A stretch of 64,000 bases of DNA from an uncultured Clostridia bacterium. GTDB lineage: Bacteria > Acidobacteriota > Aminicenantia > UBA2199. Shown here piece after piece: positions 30,371 through 38,605 of the stretch (the stretch's first letter is position 1; every line of letters starts with the position of its first letter). Location of the stretch: contig CAZWFY010000003.1 of the NCBI GenBank assembly GCA_964633415.1, positions 12,460 to 76,459 of the forward strand, given 5' to 3'. A program made the position numbers and the translations under genes. Under the pieces are notes generated by a model, which was given only the letters and a program-made list of their open reading frames with translations, ran no database searches and had not been told where the DNA came from.

Positions 30371-30982
30371 CTAATGAGTGTTACCTGAATCAAGGAGGAA
30401 AATTGCTTCCTTTGCGAGAAGGTTAGGAAAAATTCTTATAATTCTGTTTTGAGAAATAAATGCCGAATTTAAAATTTTTATTTTTTTCTTGTCACAAAAG
30501 AGCATAAAATCCTTTATAGAAAGAAATCTCAGGTTTGGTGTTCCGAACCATTCATAGGGCAGGGAAGTTGTCATAGGGGTTCTTCCCCGAAAGAAGAGTT
30601 GATAACGTGTTTTAAAATATGCAAAGTTGGGAAATGCGATTATAACGGATCTTCCTATCCTCAATGCTTCATCTATGATCTTTTTCGGAAATTCCGTTTT
30701 CTGAAGACTGTTGTTAAGAATTACAAAGTCAAATGACTTGTCGGGAAAATGTATAAGACAGTCATTAAAGTCGAGGTTAAATACATTAAGCCCTTTTGAA
30801 ATACATTCGGATACTTTCTCACTGTCTCTCTCAATCCCTTGACATTTAGCTCCTCTTCTATCTTTTAATTTTTTCATAAGAGTTCCCGACCCGCATCCGA
30901 GATCCATGACTTTTGCTCTATCCGAGATAAATTCCGATATTATTTTATGATTTTTATCTTTTTTATAATTCATTTTCTTCAC
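30371..30982 (-). CDS. metW: Methionine biosynthesis protein MetW
   Basis: VMDLGCGSG SAM motif, AFPNFAY, GRTPMTTSLPYEWFGTPN; downstream of metX. Confidence 0.93.
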   Translation of the reverse strand: MKKMNYKKDKNHKIISEFISDRAKVMDLGCGSGTLMKKLKDRRGAKCQGIERDSEKVSECISKGLNVFNLDFNDCLIHFPDKSFDFVILNNSLQKTEFPKKIIDEALRIGRSVIIAFPNFAYFKTRYQLFFRGRTPMTTSLPYEWFGTPNLRFLSIKDFMLFCDKKKIKILNSAFISQNRIIRIFPNLLAKEAIFLLDSGNTH

Positions 30983-32099
30983 AAATCCTTTCTAAAAAAT
31001 TCTTTATTATTCCGGACTCTTTTTCCTGCTCAAGTAAAAATGCATCGTGTCCGTATGAAGATTTGATTTTTGCATATGTAGTGTTGACTCCTTTGCTCAT
31101 TAGAAAGTGAATTATATCTTCCGAATAGCTGTGAGGATAGAGCCAGTCCGAATCAAAAGAGATGAGAAGGAAGGATGGAAAGATATCGGAATAGTTCTTT
31201 ATCAGCTTGTCTTCTGAAACGTCAAAATAGTTGAGGGCACGTGTTATATAGAGGAAACTGTTTGCATCAAACCTATCAACAAAAGAGTTACCGTTATAAT
31301 TCAGATAACTCTCAACTTCAAAATCAATATCAAACGAATTGCTGAATTTTTTATTTTTTAATCGTCTTGAAAATTTTTCTTCCATGGAGATCTCGCTCAT
31401 ATAGGTGATATGTCCTATCATTCTTGACAATGACAATCCTTTTTTCGGGATTTGTTTTTCATAATAATTTCCGTTATTCCAGTTTGGATCCCTTATTATC
31501 GATTGTCTGGCAACTTCTGAGAAAGCAATTTGCATGGGAGATTGTTTCCATGCGGCTGAAATTGAGATTACTGAAGCGGTAAATTCTGGGAAATCCGATG
31601 CAATTTGCAAAGCAAGCATTCCGCCCATTGAACCTCCGGCGACAGAAAATAATTTTTTAATTCCCAGAAAATCCAATAATTTTTTTTGAGCTTTGATCAT
31701 ATCCGATAATGAAATAAACGGAAATTCAGTGCCATAAGGTTTCCCCGTATCCGGATTGTTTGAGGAAGGACCGGTAGATCCGCTGCAACCTCCGATGATA
31801 TTTGAACAGATAATGAAAAATTTTTCCGTATCAAATGCTTTTTTAGGACCGATAAGGTTATCCCACCACCCCGGTTTTTTATCCGAATTGTTGTAATATC
31901 CGGCCGCATGTGAATCCATAGTTAATGTGTGCTGGATCAATATGGCATTGTCTCTTTTAACATTTAAAGTGCCGTATGTTTCATAGGCGATTGTTATGGG
32001 GCCAAACACTATTCCCGACTCAAGTAAAAGACGGTCACTCTTTTTCCCCCCGAATGTAAAATAATTTTTCTTTACTTTCCCTATCGATCTGTTTCCCAT
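30963..32099 (-). CDS. metX: Homoserine O-acetyltransferase
   Basis: AYETYGTLN, GGSMGGM nucleophile elbow, FDANS, YGHDAFLLE. Confidence 0.95.
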   Translation of the reverse strand: MGNRSIGKVKKNYFTFGGKKSDRLLLESGIVFGPITIAYETYGTLNVKRDNAILIQHTLTMDSHAAGYYNNSDKKPGWWDNLIGPKKAFDTEKFFIICSNIIGGCSGSTGPSSNNPDTGKPYGTEFPFISLSDMIKAQKKLLDFLGIKKLFSVAGGSMGGMLALQIASDFPEFTASVISISAAWKQSPMQIAFSEVARQSIIRDPNWNNGNYYEKQIPKKGLSLSRMIGHITYMSEISMEEKFSRRLKNKKFSNSFDIDFEVESYLNYNGNSFVDRFDANSFLYITRALNYFDVSEDKLIKNYSDIFPSFLLISFDSDWLYPHSYSEDIIHFLMSKGVNTTYAKIKSSYGHDAFLLEQEKESGIIKNFLERICEENEL

Positions 32100-32100
32100 T

Positions 32101-33408
32101 TTATTCTCCGCCGTTTACTTTTTTTAATGCCTGATCCAGATCAGAGATGATATCGTCAGGGTTCTCTATTCCGACCGAGAGTCTTATAAAATCTTCCGTT
32201 ACTCCGGCTTCCAGTCTCTCTTTTGCCGTTAATCTCCGGTGGGTTGTTGACGCAGGATGAATTGCAAGTGTTCGTGTATCTCCGATATTTGCGAGATGAG
32301 CGATCAATCCGAGTGAATCAATAAATTTTTTTCCGGACTCCTTTCCGCCTTTTATTCCGAATCCGATCACAGCTCCGGTACCTTTCGGGAAATATTTATT
32401 TGCGAGAATATCATTCTCTTTGCTTCCCGAACCGGGAAAATTAACCCACGAAACTTTCGGATGCTCTTTTAAAAAAACAGTGATTTTTTTTGCATTTTTT
32501 ATATGTTCTCTCATTCTTACATGAAGTGTTTCAAGACCTTGCAGTAGAAGAAATGAATTAAATGGTGAAATGGATCCTCCGAGATCTCTTAACATAGTCA
32601 ATCTTGCTTTCATAATATAGGGTGTGCTTGCAGATACATTTTTAAATTTTTCGGAAAAAATCATTCCGTGGAATTCAGGGTCAGGTTCCGAGATATCCGG
32701 ATATTTCCCTTTACTCCAGTCGAATTTTCCGGAATCGACAACAAGTCCTCCCATTGAATTTCCGTGTCCTCCGATATATTTTGTTGCAGAATATACAACG
32801 ATGTCCGCTCCGAAATGAAAGGGCTGAAAAATATAGGGAGAAAAAGTGTTGTCAACGATCAAAGGAATATTATATTTTTTTAAAATATCCTTTAATCCTT
32901 CTATATCTGAAATAGTCAGAGAAGGATTACCAATTGATTCTGTGAAAACCGCTCTTGTTTTCTCGTTAATTAAAGGCTTAATCTTTTCAAATTCGTTGAT
33001 CGGAACAAAATGTGTGGTTATTCCGAATTTTTTAAATGTATATCTGAAAAGATTATGTGTGCCGCCATAGAGAGATTGGGAGGATATTATTTCATCTCCG
33101 GCTTTGGCGATTGATAATATAGATGAAGATATTGCTGCCAATCCGCTCGCAAATGCAACCGCACCTTTGCCACCCTCCAGTTCTGCTATCCGCTTTTCCA
33201 GAACGTCGGTCGTCGGGTTTGAGATCCGTGTATATATATTGCCTGCTTCATTCGATTCGAAGAGGGATGTTGCATGATCACTGTTTTTAAATCGAAATGA
33301 TGTGCTTTGGATAATAGGAACCGCTTGTGCTCCGAAAGCATCCCGGGGATCATATCCTGCATGCAGTAAAATTGTCTCTCTGTTATATTTTTTCTTTTTT
33401 TCAGTCAT
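32101..33408 (-). CDS. metY: O-acetylhomoserine sulfhydrylase (PLP)
   Basis: [22 protein letters not shown] (PLP Lys), [18 protein letters not shown]. Confidence 0.95.
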
Positions 33409-34793
33409 TTTTTATCCTTTATTCGGTTGAAAAATTCTTTATGAATGGCAGTCAATGCTTTTTTGCAATCACTGTCGTCTATGATCAGATACATTGAAGT
33501 CTCTGATGCTCCGAGAGAGATTATCCGGACGTTTATCTTCTCTTTGTTTAAAGCGGATAAAATTTTTGAAGCTATTCCGAATCGTTCTCCGATTCCTTCT
33601 CCGACTGCAGCAAGGATGGAAATATTATCTATTATTGAGATTTCTTCAAGTATAAAACTTTCGATATTTTCAAGTATTTTAAAGCTTTCCCTAATATCTT
33701 CCGTTGAAAGAAGAAAGTTTATAGATGTCTGTGATGTGATTATTGACTTGATGTTGATTCCGGCTTTATTGAATTTTTTAGATACAACAGCTATTATTCC
33801 CGGTTTTTCTCCGACATTGGCACCTTTAAGTCTTAGTATCGAGATATCATTATCATAAGTAATACTTTTTATTACATCTTTTACGACAGATCTTTTTGAA
33901 TTAATAACCGTAGCCGGCGAATATTTTCCGGAAATATCTCCCAAACCGAATATTCTCAATTCTATGTTTCTTTCCTTAATAGGGATGAATGCACCCGGAT
34001 GGATTATTTTAGCTCCGAAATATGATAATTCGGCAGCTTCTTCATAGCTTAAATGTTCAATAGGTTTCACCTCTTTTACTATTTTCGGATCGGATGTCAT
34101 AAACCCTTCGACATCTTTCCACAGATCAAGGAATTCGGCATCAATACATTTTGCGATCGATGCCGCTGTATAATCGCTTCCACCTCTTCCGAAAACCGAA
34201 ATACGCGAACCTTCGGAAATACCGTAAAATCCCGGAATTATATAATTTTTCTCCGGAGATAAGTTTTTCTTGACGGAATCAATTGAACGATTAAAATCGA
34301 CACCCGACCTGTCCGAAGAATCATATGAATATAATCCTATCTTTTCAGGGAGTGCTACACTGTTCACTATCCCGTAATGATTAAGGAACAGTGAAATAAG
34401 ATTTGATGACAATCTTTCCCCGAAACTGAGAACATATGAATGTGAAAAATCGGGAACATCGCTTATAAGTTGAAGTCCTGTGAGATAATTCTTTAATTGT
34501 TTCAGAAGTATAAGTATCTTCCTTCTGATTTCATTGGAGCTGCTTTTTTTATCTATGTTAATATTGATGAATGTAAAATGCAGTTCTTTCAAATATTCAA
34601 TGATATTATCAATGCTTTTTTTGTTAAAAACTCCCTTCTTTAAAAAGCAGGAGAGTTTGTCGGTAACTCCATACAGGGCAGATACCACAATTATCAGATA
34701 TTGAGAATATGACCGGACAGCGGAAAGGATCTTTTTAAAATCCGACGGCTCCTTTAGTACCGATCCGCCGAATTTAACTACGATCTTTTTCAC
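33405..34793 (-). CDS. lysC: Aspartate kinase with two ACT domains
   Basis: [36 protein letters not shown], two ACT repeats. GTG 34793 with SD GGAG preferred (alternatives 34805, 34829). Confidence 0.92.
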
Positions 34794-35817
34794 TGTTCTC
34801 TCCATAGAGTGATTGGAAGTATTCGGCATTAATCACCGATCCCCCCGCTCCTCCCCTTACAACGTTGTTCACAAGAAGATTGAATCCTATTTTCTCACCT
34901 TTTATTTTAAGTCCACCGGTAAAAACCTGCATTCCCCGGGGGGTTCCGAGGAAGGAGAGATTGTTGCGTGGTATTCCCTCATCGTCAAGATATATTACCG
35001 GTTTTTTTGGAATTGAAGGAAGATCTGTTATCTGTGACAATAAACCCCATTTTTTCAAAATACTTTCTTTGTCAGGATATGTGTTTAATTTCACCCAGAC
35101 GGTTTCGAGATGTCCGAATCTGACGGGAACTCTGACTGATGAAGCGAATATATCAAAATTGATATTGAGTATCGCCTTTGTCTCAAACTCAATTTTTTCT
35201 TCTTCACCCTTTATGAAAGGTATAACGTTATCTGAAATATCGATTGCAGAATGACCCGGATATCCGGCTCCCGAGATTGCCTGATAAGTGGATACGGTGA
35301 CCTCTTTAATCCCGAACTCTTTTAAAGGTGAAAGTGCTATTGCAAGTCCCGATGTGCTGCAATTAGAATTTGTGATTATAAATCCTTTATCAGGGAAGCC
35401 CTGCTTTTTTATCAGCTCTATAGTATCCGGGTTTACATCCGGGATAAGTATCGGAACGTCTTTATCCCGCCTGTGTGCCGATGAATTTGAAAAGATATAG
35501 AATCCTCCTTCGCGGAGGAATGATTCGATCTTATTTCCCGATTCCGCCGGTAGTGCTGAAAAGATATATTTAATTCCGCGTGACTTAAGTGCCCCGGCAT
35601 CGAGTTCTTCAAGAGTCATATTGAATATTTTCTCGTTCGGAGCGAAGGGAAGTTGCCATTTCACTTGATCCTTATATCTTTTTCCCGCTCTTTTTTTTGA
35701 AGCGATCAAGCTTTTAATTTCAAAAACATCATGATCCGAAAGCATACTGGTAAAGACCTGTCCTATAATTCCGGTAGCACCGATTATCGCTGCTTTTTCA
35801 GTTTTATTTTTCTTCAT
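34774..35817 (-). CDS. asd: Aspartate-semialdehyde dehydrogenase (archaeal/eukaryote-type)
   Basis: IIGATGIIG, SALP, NSNCSTSG catalytic Cys, QAISGAGYPG, VRVPVRFGH, NNVVRGGAG; SD AAGGAG. Confidence 0.94.
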   Translation of the reverse strand: MKKNKTEKAAIIGATGIIGQVFTSMLSDHDVFEIKSLIASKKRAGKRYKDQVKWQLPFAPNEKIFNMTLEELDAGALKSRGIKYIFSALPAESGNKIESFLREGGFYIFSNSSAHRRDKDVPILIPDVNPDTIELIKKQGFPDKGFIITNSNCSTSGLAIALSPLKEFGIKEVTVSTYQAISGAGYPGHSAIDISDNVIPFIKGEEEKIEFETKAILNINFDIFASSVRVPVRFGHLETVWVKLNTYPDKESILKKWGLLSQITDLPSIPKKPVIYLDDEGIPRNNLSFLGTPRGMQVFTGGLKIKGEKIGFNLLVNNVVRGGAGGSVINAEYFQSLYGENSEKDRS

Positions 35818-35876
35818 TTGAATTTCTCCTTTGATTTTTTTTGTATGGATTTCCCTAAGGAAAATAGATTTGAGAT

Positions 35877-35895
35877 GCCCCGATAGTTTCGGGGC
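35877..35895 (-). terminator. GC-rich hairpin in met leader (attenuator-like, no canonical U-tract on the coding strand)
   Basis: GCCCCGA-AACTA-TCGGGGC, starting 1 nt after the leader ORF stop. Confidence 0.5.
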
Positions 35896-35896
35896 T

Positions 35897-35926
35897 TTAC
35901 ATCAACATAAGTGAAAATATAAACAT
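35897..35926 (-). CDS. Putative Met-rich leader peptide MFIFSLMLM
   Basis: AGGAGG-CGGTAA-ATG TTT ATA TTT TCA CTT ATG TTG ATG TAA; 3 of 9 codons Met, upstream of a Met biosynthesis operon. Confidence 0.55.
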   Translation of the reverse strand: MFIFSLMLM

Positions 35927-35942
35927 TTACCGCCTCCTGAAT

Positions 35943-36042
35943 ACTATTCAGGGAAATAGTCCCTGCCGGATTACCACCTTATTCATAGAGAACAGGTTGG
36001 TGAGGATCGTAGAGTTCCGGACTCTCACCTCGTCTTCATAGC
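35943..36042 (-). ncRNA. SAM-I (S-box) riboswitch, non-consensus variant
   Basis: Folded by hand: P1 GCUAU/AUAGU; J1/2 GAAGAC; P2 GAGG/CCUC and GAGU/ACUC around a K-turn (tandem GA, UAC bulge); L2 CCGGA pairs with J3/4 UCCGG (pseudoknot); P3 ACC-AA-CC/GG-U-GGU; P4 CAGGGA/UCCCUG; upstream of met genes. Confidence 0.88.
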
Positions 36043-36072
36043 GTAAAGGCTCTGAAGAGATTAAACGAAATA

Positions 36073-36101
36073 AAGTTATCAAAAAATGTCGAATGTGTCA
36101 A
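36073..36101 (-). promoter_or_regulatory. Sigma70 promoter of riboswitch/met operon
   Basis: Minus strand TTGACA-N17-TAACTT, about 30 nt upstream of P1. Confidence 0.7.
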
Positions 36102-36147
36102 GCGAGTTTAAAATATTTTGGTTTTGAAGTGACATATAGTATATTAT

Positions 36148-37326
36148 GTGACTGGAATAAAAATGGATCAGATAAAAAAGTTTTATATTACCGAGTTTTT
36201 AAAAACACAGAACTATTTTATCCCTGTAATGATACTTTTTCTTCAGTTCAACAAGCTTAATTACACTCAGATCTTTACATTATACTCCATTCAATCTGCA
36301 GCTGTTTTTCTCCTTGAAATCCCGAGCGGAATACTTGCGGATCGAATAGGAAAGAAACCCGCTCTGTTAGTTTCCAGAGTTTCTCTTATTCCTGCTTATT
36401 TTATTTTTGCTTTTCTTTCCGGATTCTTATGGTTCCTGTTTGCAATGATATTTCTTGCTGTAAATAAAGCCTTTAAGTCGGGTACTCATAAAGCGTTTAT
36501 TTTTGACTATCTGAAATATAGCGGCTCGGAAGTGACTCCAACCGAAGTTTATGGCAAGTGTAAGTTCTGGGCAAGGATCGGTGAAGCCATCGCTTCCGTT
36601 GCAGGAGGGGTTATTGCCGTAAAATACGGATATGAAACGGTTTTTCTTGCAGCGTTAATACCGGTTATTCTGAATATATTTAATACTGTAAGTTATGCTG
36701 ATATTGAGGGAAAAATTGGGATACGAATTCCGGGATTAAGAGAACAGTTCATTCATATTAAGAATTCAGCTATGGAGATATATGGGAAGAAAAATATGTT
36801 AAAGCTGATTCTTAATTCCGCTCTTTTTATTTTTTGTATCGAAGCTTCTGAAAAATTCCTTCAGCCATATATGGTGTCGGCAAAGATAAAAGTTGAATAT
36901 TTCGGTGTAATTTATATGATATTTATGCTCATAACCGCTTTTGCATCGAGATATTCATATACATTGGAAAAGCATTTCAAAAGATATTCGATAATAAATT
37001 CTCTGGGAATATTTGCGATCATCCCGTTTATATTTTTTTGGATCGGTATTGTTGAAAAATGGGGGATAGTTTTTTTTCTGATGATCTTTTTGTTAAAAAA
37101 TCTAAGAAGACCCATCTTAACTACAGCGTTGAATGAAAATATATCTTCATCAAACAGAGCGACGATTCTTTCGATCACGGCTCTTGCAAAATCAGTTTTC
37201 CTTATGCTTTTTCTACCGGTTATCGGATATATCTCCGATAATTTTTCAATGACCGGTGCTTTTATTGTAATCGGTCTGCTTGCTTTAATAAACGGAATTG
37301 TTTTTAAAATAGACAATACACCCTGA
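36148..37326 (+). CDS. MFS transporter
   Basis: LEIPSGILADRIGKK motif A; about 12 hydrophobic segments; NRATILSI. Start may be ATG 36163. Confidence 0.92.
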   Translation: MTGIKMDQIKKFYITEFLKTQNYFIPVMILFLQFNKLNYTQIFTLYSIQSAAVFLLEIPSGILADRIGKKPALLVSRVSLIPAYFIFAFLSGFLWFLFAMIFLAVNKAFKSGTHKAFIFDYLKYSGSEVTPTEVYGKCKFWARIGEAIASVAGGVIAVKYGYETVFLAALIPVILNIFNTVSYADIEGKIGIRIPGLREQFIHIKNSAMEIYGKKNMLKLILNSALFIFCIEASEKFLQPYMVSAKIKVEYFGVIYMIFMLITAFASRYSYTLEKHFKRYSIINSLGIFAIIPFIFFWIGIVEKWGIVFFLMIFLLKNLRRPILTTALNENISSSNRATILSITALAKSVFLMLFLPVIGYISDNFSMTGAFIVIGLLALINGIVFKIDNTP

Positions 37327-37408: not shown

Positions 37409-38605
37409 TTATTTACTCCATGTCTGTCCCCAGTTAATAAACTTAGTCTTCAAGTTTTTCTTCTTTGTATACATGAATACTTCGATTTTCTGAGAAGAAA
37501 AAGGTGAAGATCCAGTGTAGTTCAACTCTACAATCACTTGATTTTTAAAGTGAACCTGCCCTTTCGGTACTCCGTAAGGAAGACCTCCCGCCGGAATATA
37601 TGACCAGTTATTGGTTCCCACGATATGAGCTCCTAAAAAACATGCTTTTTGAAATTCGGGTGATATGAAATATCTGACCTGAAATTTTACTTTGGAGGGG
37701 GTAATGAAAATCATATTTATATCCTGAATATCAAACTTATATTGAGGTATTGCTTTCATAAGTTTTACCGGATCATATGCTTTTAGTAATTTCTTTGGAA
37801 AAAATTTGTTTTTATTACTGTTTTTACTCCATGTTTTTACCCAGTTCACTCTGGTACTCCTCAGAGTATTCTCTTTAGTATAAATAAAAAATTCTATCTT
37901 TTTTGAAGTAAAGGGTGCAGATCCGGTATAGTTTAATTCAAGGGAAATATTGTCTCTAAAGTTTATCTGTCCTTTCGGTACTCCATTAGGAATTCTTCCT
38001 GCAGGGATATATGACCAGTTATTAGTTCCGACTATGCGTGCTCCGATAAAGCATGGTTTGTTATATTTGGGGGTAATAAAATATCGGATTAAAAACTTTT
38101 CTTTGGAAGGTGATTTAAAAGTGCTCCTTACATTGAAAATCTGAAATTTATCAAAATCTTTATTCCATGTTTGTCCCCAATTTATATCCATACTTTTCAA
38201 TGTCTTATCCTTTGTATAGATATATACTTCAATCTTTTCCGATGTAAAGGGAGATGATCCGGTATAGTTTAATTCAACGGATACATTATTATCAAAATGT
38301 ATTTGTCCTTTCGGAACACCATAGGGAACTCTTCCTGCGGGGATATATGACCAATTGTCTGTCCCTTTAATATGTGCTCCTATAAAGCAGGGTTTTGGGA
38401 ATTTTGGAGATATGAAATATTGAACCAAAAATTTTATTTTGGCTGGATTTGTAATAATTCTCTTTATACCCTGAATATCAAATTTATAAAGCTGCATAAC
38501 CTTTAAAGCTTTAACAGGATATACTTCTGCATACTGAAATTGTCGAGAAAAGAAAAACAGAGATAATGCAAATAAAATTAAGATAAAAATTGTTGATTTT
38601 TTCAT
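37409..38605 (-). CDS. Secreted protein of three ~110-aa tandem repeats (unrecognised domain)
   Basis: Signal peptide; repeats at aa 40-149, 152-261, 289-398 share CFxGAxIxGTxNWSYIPAGxxPxGVPKGQ and ELNYTGSxPFxSxKIE. Confidence 0.85.
   Translation of the reverse strand: MKKSTIFILILFALSLFFFSRQFQYAEVYPVKALKVMQLYKFDIQGIKRIITNPAKIKFLVQYFISPKFPKPCFIGAHIKGTDNWSYIPAGRVPYGVPKGQIHFDNNVSVELNYTGSSPFTSEKIEVYIYTKDKTLKSMDINWGQTWNKDFDKFQIFNVRSTFKSPSKEKFLIRYFITPKYNKPCFIGARIVGTNNWSYIPAGRIPNGVPKGQINFRDNISLELNYTGSAPFTSKKIEFFIYTKENTLRSTRVNWVKTWSKNSNKNKFFPKKLLKAYDPVKLMKAIPQYKFDIQDINMIFITPSKVKFQVRYFISPEFQKACFLGAHIVGTNNWSYIPAGGLPYGVPKGQVHFKNQVIVELNYTGSSPFSSQKIEVFMYTKKKNLKTKFINWGQTWSK

Follow-up and report, generated by a model that had tools for sequence, protein, structure and literature searches.

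A SAM-I riboswitch subclass of Aminicenantes with a distinctive expression platform and a proposed target in a methionine-codon mini-ORF

How might a riboswitch turn off a methionine operon when no terminator can be recognized in its leader? The question is raised by a 64,000-nucleotide (nt) stretch of contig CAZWFY010000003.1 (the window), from the assembly of an uncultured Clostridia bacterium that GTDB places in the Aminicenantia of the Acidobacteriota. On its minus strand, a divergent S-adenosylmethionine (SAM) aptamer of the SAM-I type precedes the genes asd-ask-metY-metX-metW. Judged from sequence comparison, the element is a member of a lineage-restricted SAM-I subclass in Aminicenantes and related Acidobacteriota, and it is best described as a SAM-I aptamer whose peripheral positions are less strictly conserved, joined to a distinctive expression platform that is itself well conserved. 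That platform is the most unusual part of the leader, and its connection to the aptamer is absent from the preliminary description of this locus.

At Rfam gathering thresholds, the whole window gives zero Rfam matches. In a permissive scan of positions 35500-36500, the full length of the SAM-I model (RF00162, model positions 1-108) aligns to 35941-36044 of the minus strand with 40.6 bits (E = 1.5e-07), short of the gathering score (44.4 bits). Within clan CL00012, which includes SAM-IV and SAM-I/IV, cmscan retains RF00162 as the best model, and the marks of SAM-IV and SAM-I/IV (no SAM-I-type P4, no kink-turn [K-turn], a different pseudoknot) do not apply, as P4 and the K-turn are present. The cmscan alignment and its pair list contain the four-way junction of helices P1, P2, P3, and P4, with these parts:

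35941-36044, minus strand: SAM-I aptamer, full-length RF00162 match below the gathering score
36038-36042, minus strand: P1 5' strand GCUAU, pairing with AUAGU at 35947-35943; invariant in the class
35943-35947, minus strand: P1 3' strand AUAGU, partner of GCUAU
36016-36020, minus strand: pseudoknot strand CCGGA in the P2 loop, pairing with UCCGG at 35970-35966
35966-35970, minus strand: pseudoknot strand UCCGG in J3/4, forming 5 base pairs (bp) with CCGGA
35973-36001, minus strand: P3 with swapped base ACCA(A)CC...GGUGGU (cmscan alignment); invariant in 20 copies
35949-35965, minus strand: P4 hairpin CAGGGA/UCCCUG, with two-sided changes in five of six pairs across copies

P2 consists of P2a (GAGG/CCUC) and P2b ((A)GAG/CUC(U)), and the tandem G.A/A.G pairs of the K-turn can form between G36026/A36025 and G36008/A36007, after the bulge UAC. 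The preliminary description had expected covariance searches to score the aptamer poorly and had reported that all helices, the K-turn, and the 5-bp pseudoknot form, with the SAM-contacting positions of the T. tengcongensis aptamer in place; the search and the alignment agree on every count, in a numbering mapped onto the window by way of the T. tengcongensis sequence. It also read the departures from the family correctly. Specifically, GGCAACC/GGUGCC is replaced by ACCAACC/GGUGGU through two compensated swaps (A36001-U35973 and C36000-G35974, in place of consensus G-C and G-C), cmscan flags the G/A apposition atop P1 as a non-standard pair, and three model positions of J4/1 are deleted. The extra C that had been assigned to J1/2 fits C36032, which stands in place of the consensus G opening P2 and whose partner position is deleted.

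No other credible SAM-I match occurs in the window's own 2.5-Mb assembly. A second RF00162 match in that genome (L002, G000:C23:24312-24416; 22 bits) lacks the aptamer's conserved motifs on inspection and looks spurious; another weak match (L006, G035:C20) also lacks them and is probably due to chance (22-24 bits for the two).

The peculiarities of the window copy are shared by a coherent set of relatives. We examined 45 copies, 37 of which are non-redundant, plus a copy from G317, and of the 38 copies tested, not one attains the RF00162 gathering score. The window copy and 18 further copies go unlisted at the gathering threshold; permissive RF00162 searches list six other variant copies, at 27.6-34.6 bits, and no further genome copy at E <= 0.01, which leaves the window copy as the best scorer of the subclass. 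Among 41 relatives, RF00162 has matches in five genomes only (mostly 22-45 bits), and two of these matches, both from one genome of another genus, have all of the window's peculiarities. A covariance model built from three copies (R1; the window copy and two of the other genus) yielded 21 matches in 18 of the 72 genomes of the window's family, representing 8 of its 18 genera, and 19 of the matches are variant copies. The two weakest (L025 and L026) were considered as variants without P4 and rejected, because they are canonical SAM-I elements of 60-65 bits. Within the class, R1 matches are confined to the window's family and one genome of a second family, and a sample of the phylum added one further match, in a third family. 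Across approximately 185,000 species genomes, only 18 stretches contain the invariant core, GCTATGAAGACGAG-N20-45-CTCACCAACCTG; 25 metagenome contigs contain it as well. All core-bearing records with informative titles are metagenome-assembled genomes of Candidatus Aminicenantes or Acidobacteriota; of the others, seven are titled 'uncultured Clostridia bacterium' and one 'uncultured bacterium', and most are contigs of the window's family. With the whole subclass under the Rfam cut-off, standard annotation currently overlooks methionine regulation in these genomes, and the set of 45 copies could seed a model that recovers it.

Canonical and variant SAM-I elements coexist in the family, with copies in genus g14 and genome G012 scoring 44-65 bits. 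Two near-threshold copies from genome G012 (L004 and L007; 45.4 and 44.5 bits) have the P3 base GCCAACC/GGUGGC and G at position 8, and they end in hairpin plus U-tract terminators. Ordinary terminators are thus within reach of this lineage, and the absence of a terminator is therefore a property of the variant class and not of the lineage. Each of these two copies also has a GC-rich hairpin, GCGGGGCCCGGCGCCCCGC, upstream, and one of them precedes a gene whose product starts MKKEKKREVLVEEIRGLPLEMAPIPAGSFTMGS, not an obvious methionine gene.

The fold is supported by covariation among 20 genome copies. In an alignment fitted to the structure of the R1 model, 94 per cent of cells hold standard pairs, versus 41-52 per cent with partners slid by 1-3 columns; two-sided changes occur at 12 pairs, and none of 500 shuffles reaches any of five measures. 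P4 and P2b co-vary freely across copies. The pseudoknot is a 4-8 bp duplex in all 20, with compensatory changes (CCGGA/UCCGG, CCGGUA/UACCGG, CCGGCU/AGCCGG, UCCGAU/AUCGGA, UCUGAAU/AUUCAGA, and CGCCG/CGGCG), and the identity of its fifth pair differs among three relatives (A-U, U-A, or C-G). The K-turn is relaxed in some members, where the 2n position may be G, U, C, or A, and a few copies have no G at 1b.

Has the ligand changed along with the sequence? Highly conserved positions of SAM-I are U4, A6, U7, A87, and U88 in P1, G11 and A12 in J1/2, and A61 in J3/4; G19, A20, G35, and A36 of the K-turn and G21, A24, and C31 of P2b; and G43, C44, A45, C47, G56, U57, G58, and C59 in P3 (PMC3764141). 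The main chain of methionine is read by G11 together with C44-G58, and the carbonyl of U7 faces the sulfonium (PMC3764141). In the cmscan alignment of the window, A6, U7, G11, A12, C44, A45, C47, G56, U57, G58, A87, and U88 are all kept, and these twelve contact positions are invariant in the 20 copies from the covariance search. The window departs from the consensus at G43-C59 (C-G), G42-C60 (A-U), U4 (C), and A24 (U), and within the subclass there is variation at A61 and at the K-turn 2n base. Such differences at highly conserved positions could be taken to mean that the P3 swaps, the G.A apposition atop P1, and the loss of J4/1 positions retune the pocket to S-adenosylhomocysteine (SAH) or another SAM-related compound. 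We regard this as very improbable. The P3 swaps sit one and two pairs below the contact layer, whose direct contacts are invariant, among them the pairs of U7 and U88 by which the sulfonium is recognized. On its own, the G43-C59 swap occurs as well in family members scoring 44-65 bits (L004, L007, L025, and L026), and because these higher-scoring members share it, it is no bar to SAM-I membership. Finally, the proposed OFF logic acts on de novo methionine synthesis, not on SAH recycling. Thus, of the earlier suggestion of a variant subclass with possibly altered specificity, the subclass is supported and the change from SAM to SAH is not: with invariant contacts and a regulon that fits SAM feedback, a switch to SAH or another ligand is not supported. 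The element is very probably a working SAM switch, and the subclass indicates which SAM-I positions can be dispensed with when the contact layer is kept, namely G43-C59, U4, A24, A61, the K-turn 2n base, and the lengths of P1 and J4/1.

If the aptamer is a SAM switch, what does it switch? The parts of the leader on either side of it are as follows:

36073-36101, minus strand: putative promoter, read from the sequence (TTGACA at 36101-36096, 17-nt spacer, TAACTT at 36078-36073)
36033-36058, minus strand: 5' anti-aptamer hairpin, UCUUCA.AGC, loop CUUUAC, GCU.UGAAGA (-8.7 versus -2.1 kcal/mol for shuffles)
36045-36050, minus strand: anti-Shine-Dalgarno (anti-SD) stretch GCCUUU, 5' strand of the outer P1 extension, pairing with GGAGGC at 35937-35932
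35932-35937, minus strand: Shine-Dalgarno (SD) sequence GGAGG(C) of a short open reading frame (mini-ORF), 3' strand of the outer P1 extension; GGAGG conserved
35897-35926, minus strand: mini-ORF ATG TTT ATA TTT TCA CTT ATG TTG ATG TAA, encoding MFIFSLMLM*, recognized by comparison of copies
35877-35895, minus strand: GC hairpin GCCCCG-AAACUAU-CGGGGC (-12.7 kcal/mol), starting 4 nt after the last Met codon, with no adjacent U-tract

The arrangement TTGACA-N17-TAnnnT recurs in nearly all copies and ends 8-13 nt before UCUUCA, which places UCUUCA at the 5' end of the RNA. A sigma-70 consensus scan of 35780-36160 called no promoter, and TAACTT fits the consensus at three of six positions only.

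The preliminary description had proposed that UCUUCA pairs with UGAAGA as an anti-aptamer. This pairing extends to AGC:GCU and is present in all 37 non-redundant copies (-8.2 to -12.3 kcal/mol versus -1 to -3.5 kcal/mol for shuffles; mean z = -4.6), including L057, with the inner stem CACUG/CAGUG, and L022, which offsets an inserted U by an extra A-U pair. The hairpin captures the 5' strand of P1 and J1/2 (the equivalents of A9, A10, and G11) and holds the anti-SD, which lies between its two halves, in its stem and loop. When the anti-SD pairs with the SD instead, the resulting helix extends P1 coaxially beyond an internal loop. Complementarity to GGAGG is kept in all copies, with the anti-SD reading GCUUCU, CUCUU, CUUUCUG, or ACCUC elsewhere, and the linker between P1 and GGAGG varies in sequence and length (4-7 nt; AUUCA, GAUCG, GAACA, GUCA, and others). 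Two-sided changes are seen among CUUCUAA:UUAGGAG, CUUCUGU:ACAGGAG, UUUCUG:CAGGAGG, ACCUC:GAGGU, and GCCUUU:GGAGGC. The pairing is stronger within than between copies (-5.32 versus -4.60 kcal/mol), a difference matched by none of 2000 permutations in a test that related copies inflate. Two other pairings were considered and rejected: a helix between the 5' extension and the end of the mini-ORF (CUUUAC:GUAAAG) occurs in the window only, by inspection, and a hairpin between the P4/P1 3' strands and the first half of the SD is no conserved feature, as the linker from P1 to the SD varies freely.

In an unconstrained fold of the window leader, P1 and the anti-SD:SD helix belong to the minimum free energy (MFE) structure and the 5' hairpin to the centroid. 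Energies of three states were evaluated explicitly on 36060-35915:

5' hairpin with P2-P4, SD free: -33.7 kcal/mol
P1 and anti-SD:SD with P2-P4: -32.9 kcal/mol
P1 alone with P2-P4: -26.5 kcal/mol

The competing folds are predicted to be near-isoenergetic (0.8 kcal/mol apart) before ligand and tertiary contacts are counted, as expected of an equilibrium switch that a ligand tips. Because the competitor hairpin lies upstream and forms first in transcription, SAM must act near equilibrium. From this conservation and these energies, we conclude that the switch probably acts by hiding the SD of the mini-ORF, in a manner that would depend on the ligand.

Is the mini-ORF a gene at all? GGAGG, a spacing of 4-9 nt (mostly 5-6), a start codon, and a short ORF are found in all 45 copies. 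The 37 non-redundant copies encode 28 distinct peptides, which have 6-9 residues apart from two of 11 and one of 21. They include MFIFSLMLM (the window), MNSLMIM, MNPLMSM, MILHMIM, MMLLAMIM, MLYLNFMIM, and MLTMIM, as well as MSKRMP, MTTRMS, MLKRMT, MIHRRM, MMSCMR, MNKLMC, and, in the most distant copy, MVMFSR. Three copies start with GTG in place of ATG, length changes by whole codons only, and MSKRMP is preserved through synonymous changes (TCA/TCG, CCC/CCG, and TGA/TAG). Because the SD spacing, the ATG or GTG starts, the frame, and the encoded residues are kept in this way, the mini-ORF is a real coding feature. Methionine accounts for 49 of 190 internal codons (25.8 per cent) and falls within the last three codons of 25 of the 28 peptides; in the ATG-NNN-ATG-stop type, the ATGs are fixed and the middle codon is ATA, ATC, TTG, TCT, TCC, TAT, or TTT. 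The leaders thus share one mark of leader-peptide attenuators, a short ORF with an SD and a start codon (45 of 45 copies), enriched in codons for the amino acid of the pathway.

Of 37 copies, 35 have a hairpin of -5 kcal/mol or lower after the mini-ORF, and in most copies its GC core starts 4-5 nt after the last Met codon. Two copies whose stop codon now lies within the hairpin loop, L017 and L019, keep this distance, and what is conserved is therefore the relation between Met codon and hairpin. Given the size of a ribosome's footprint, placing the last Met codon in the A site would put the hairpin's 5' arm inside the mRNA channel.

A peptide that senses would be one way to account for a short, conserved C-terminal motif next to a stop codon. 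In such a scheme, Met or SAM would cause a nascent M-x-x-L-M-x-M to stall its ribosome, by a mechanism like that of TnaC or of the MTO1 region in plant CGS1, and arrest peptides of similar size do exist (TnaC; PMC8429421). However, peptides of 6-9 residues are too short to fill the exit tunnel, the residues other than Met vary freely, and there are several unrelated C-termini, so that we consider a peptide sensor extremely improbable.

It could instead be argued that the mini-ORF is incidental and that the leader is an ordinary transcriptional SAM-I switch, with the GC hairpin as terminator and the 3' strands of P4 and P1 as antiterminator. Most characterized SAM-I switches are indeed transcriptional, and in the window CCCUGAAUAGU can pair with ACUAUCGGGG of the hairpin (a 10-bp match of -11.6 kcal/mol). 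This classical arrangement failed on several grounds. An intrinsic terminator scan of 35780-36160 called none and found no U-tract, whereas the canonical copies of the family do have U-tract terminators. The pairing of the P4/P1 3' strands with the hairpin is not specific to each copy (-6.08 kcal/mol with the copy's own hairpin versus -5.92 kcal/mol with those of others; 506 of 2000 permutations are as good). Moreover, SD, start codon, frame, and Met codons are kept across 28 distinct peptides. An ordinary transcriptional switch is therefore improbable.

We lean towards an OFF switch that acts on initiation of mini-ORF translation and not on a terminator, and we hold the whole chain of events, positive coupling included, to be somewhat favoured by the evidence. 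By comparison among copies, the RNA would start a few bases upstream of UCUUCA. Without SAM, the 5' hairpin would hold the 5' strand of P1, the J1/2 core, and the anti-SD, leaving the downstream GGAGG free, as conservation and energies suggest. With SAM, the aptamer would fold, and P1 (GCUAU/AUAGU) would run on into GCCUUU/GGAGGC, masking the ribosome-binding site of the mini-ORF; covariation points to this helix, and its dependence on the ligand is what the model adds. Expression of asd-ask-metY-metX-metW would then need translation of the mini-ORF. A positive coupling of this kind is required, because SAM must turn methionine synthesis off. It appears directly in the sequence of L022, where the stop codon of the mini-ORF overlaps the start codon of aspartokinase as ATGA. 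The overlap is confined to L022; the mini-ORF stop lies 79 nt from the main gene in the window and 43-315 nt from it in most copies, which makes termination-reinitiation unlikely in these.

The position of the Met codons suggests a further layer. A ribosome awaiting Met-tRNA at the fixed Met codons might keep the GC hairpin melted, so that methionine supply would be a second input. That the terminal Met codons serve as a second sensor seems to us nearly an even call. Somewhat more tentatively, we suggest a two-input gate in series, in which SAM would set the loading of ribosomes on the mini-ORF and charged elongator Met-tRNA, through ribosome dwell, would set the opening of the hairpin.

Alternatively, the aptamer may gate the mini-ORF as a relay only, with Met codons that sense nothing and ATGs that are kept for another reason, such as an RNA motif adjoining the hairpin. 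Many copies preserve AUGAUAAUGUGAAGCCC at the nucleotide level, ATA fills 17 of 25 middle codons, L022 combines a mini-ORF without internal Met with direct ATGA overlap, and a pure relay has been published for uPPE2 of M. tuberculosis (PMC11260477). Yet the middle codon varies between ATGs that are fixed, unrelated types (LMxM*, RMP*, RMS*, KLMC*, RRM*, and MVMFSR*) all have Met near the end, the distance from Met codon to hairpin survives a moved stop codon, and the codon in question specifies the end product of the pathway. On balance, a relay without sensing is unlikely.

The OFF switch on the mini-ORF has to be weighed against several observations that count against it, besides the inflated permutation test mentioned above. 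P1 (GCUAU/AUAGU), P2a, the P3 base, and the stems of the 5' hairpin are invariant and so cannot contribute covariation; in the outer helix, the SD strand is nearly always GGAGG, which makes most changes there one-sided; and the metagenome copies were collected by the exact core pattern, so conservation of the core is partly ascertainment. L022 departs from the pattern, as do L042 and L064, which have no hairpin. That SAM action near equilibrium suits translational control is plausible and unproven. Two couplings between mini-ORF and operon failed. With a ribosome footprint forced onto the last Met codon, accessibility of the main SD was unchanged in six copies, so a relay by unmasking of that SD is not indicated (in the window, the predicted accessibility of the asd SD is about 0.4 and does not change with a ribosome on the mini-ORF). 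A Rho-loading tract after the hairpin is likewise unsupported, as the 78 nt downstream are on average neither C-rich nor G-poor (C 0.198, G 0.188); Rho is encoded in the genome. Nor does a U-tract follow the GC hairpin in the scanned region. The formed hairpin might be a pause signal, a non-canonical or Rho-assisted termination signal, or a signal for mRNA decay, and the candidate couplings that remain are a pause or non-canonical termination that depends on the hairpin and that the ribosome would relieve, Rho without a compositional signature, and mRNA decay.

The operon that would be controlled reads away from the leader on the same strand, with genes assigned by Pfam:

30371-35817, minus strand: operon asd-ask-metY-metX-metW
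34774-35817, minus strand: asd, aspartate-semialdehyde dehydrogenase
33405-34829, minus strand: aspartate kinase with ACT domains
32101-33408, minus strand: metY-like gene for a Cys/Met pyridoxal phosphate enzyme
30963-32099, minus strand: metX-like gene for an alpha/beta hydrolase
30371-30982, minus strand: metW

The operon has no homoserine dehydrogenase gene, so hom must lie elsewhere. In relatives, the gene behind the leader is asd in most copies, metY in three (L010, L011, and L013), and aspartokinase in two (L022 and L075). An ORF of 398 residues at 37409-38605 on the minus strand has no Pfam match at E 0.001.

Some pairings and elements lie closer to asd. In the unconstrained MFE structure of the whole leader, the 5' CUCUUC (36058-36053) pairs with GAAGAA (35816-35811) at the asd start codon (AUGAAGAAA), probably by coincidence, since other copies start asd differently. 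UUUUCCUU (35874-35867) can form 8 bp with the asd ribosome-binding site AAGGAGAA (35831-35824). In asd leaders of genus g8 (L012 [~1700-1760], L015, L027 [~1690-1760], and L029, and also L054 and L069), a further conserved element, CCGGAUC...GAUCCGG followed by UCCGGGGUYAGAGG...AGAGGU, lies between the mini-ORF hairpin and asd; the sister copies L028, L073, and L051 have a spacer of 55-57 nt in its place. It could be a second regulatory RNA on a gene common to the Lys, Thr, and Met pathways. Copies with 200-315 nt between mini-ORF and asd (L016/L053, L063, L050/L059/L068, and L058/L070) have, beyond the mini-ORF hairpin, both long-range helices, for example UCCCUUACAC...GUGUAAAGGGA, and repeated ACGUGUA/CGUGUA motifs. 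The extra conserved elements downstream of the mini-ORF in these relatives match no Rfam family.

Three features set the platform apart: a competitor helix that lies upstream, an SD that forms part of the P1 extension, and a gated frame that is a Met-codon mini-ORF and not an enzyme gene. To our knowledge, methionine-codon attenuation was never found by classical work. We found no paper that mentions riboswitches in Aminicenantes, no published case of a SAM riboswitch linked with a Met-codon leader ORF, and no published Met-codon attenuator. If the Met codons are sensed, the leader would unite riboswitch and attenuator in one compact logic gate and would exemplify methionine-codon attenuation.

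Among known systems, the aptamer resembles SAM-I (S-box, RF00162; T. tengcongensis metF and B. subtilis yitJ types) in its P1-P4 junction, P2 K-turn, pseudoknot between P2 loop and J3/4, AAGA core of J1/2, and layer of C44-G58, A45-U57, and C47-G56, as well as in its location ahead of methionine genes and its OFF logic. It differs in scoring below the gathering threshold (other copies at 27-35 bits or undetected), in the swaps of G43-C59 and G42-C60, in a P1 of only 5 bp topped by G.A, in the shortened J4/1, and in the variable A61 and K-turn 2n base; there is no terminator or antiterminator, the competitor helix is upstream, and the SD of the leader ORF is within the P1 extension.

A close parallel to the proposed logic is that of the B12 switches of M. 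tuberculosis, which act via upstream ORFs (uORFs), with uPPE2 as an obligatory relay (PMC11260477). There, a riboswitch masks the ribosome-binding site of a short uORF whose translation the downstream gene needs, as we propose for the mini-ORF, and L022 has the same ATGA stop-start overlap. Ligand and aptamer are different, and unlike uPPE2 the mini-ORF carries codons for the end product of its own pathway. SAM-I(Xcc) of Xanthomonas campestris, which acts on translation, responds to uncharged tRNA-fMet as well (PMC7270179). It shares with our leader a met operon and, with what we propose for that leader, mainly translational control through anti-SD/SD pairing and a second methionine-related signal. 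There, however, the uncharged initiator tRNA binds the expression platform and the SD is that of the first enzyme gene, whereas here the proposed input is ribosome dwell on the Met codons of a mini-ORF.

The mgtA leader of Salmonella combines a Mg2+ riboswitch with mgtL, an ORF with proline codons. Like it (reviewed in PMC12360218), our leader joins a ligand-sensing RNA to a short ORF whose codons are proposed to report a second signal. Ligand, codons, and logic differ, and the mgtA ORF works on alternative stem-loops and Rho-dependent termination, whereas we found no such alternative pairing here. Finally, a short ORF rich in codons for the operon's amino acid and followed by a hairpin is the arrangement of the attenuators trpL, hisL, and pheL and of mycobacterial polycysteine uORFs (bioRxiv 10.1101/834739). 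Unlike these leader-peptide attenuators, the Aminicenantes leaders have no terminator/antiterminator pair and no U-tract, and access to the ORF would itself be gated by a riboswitch.

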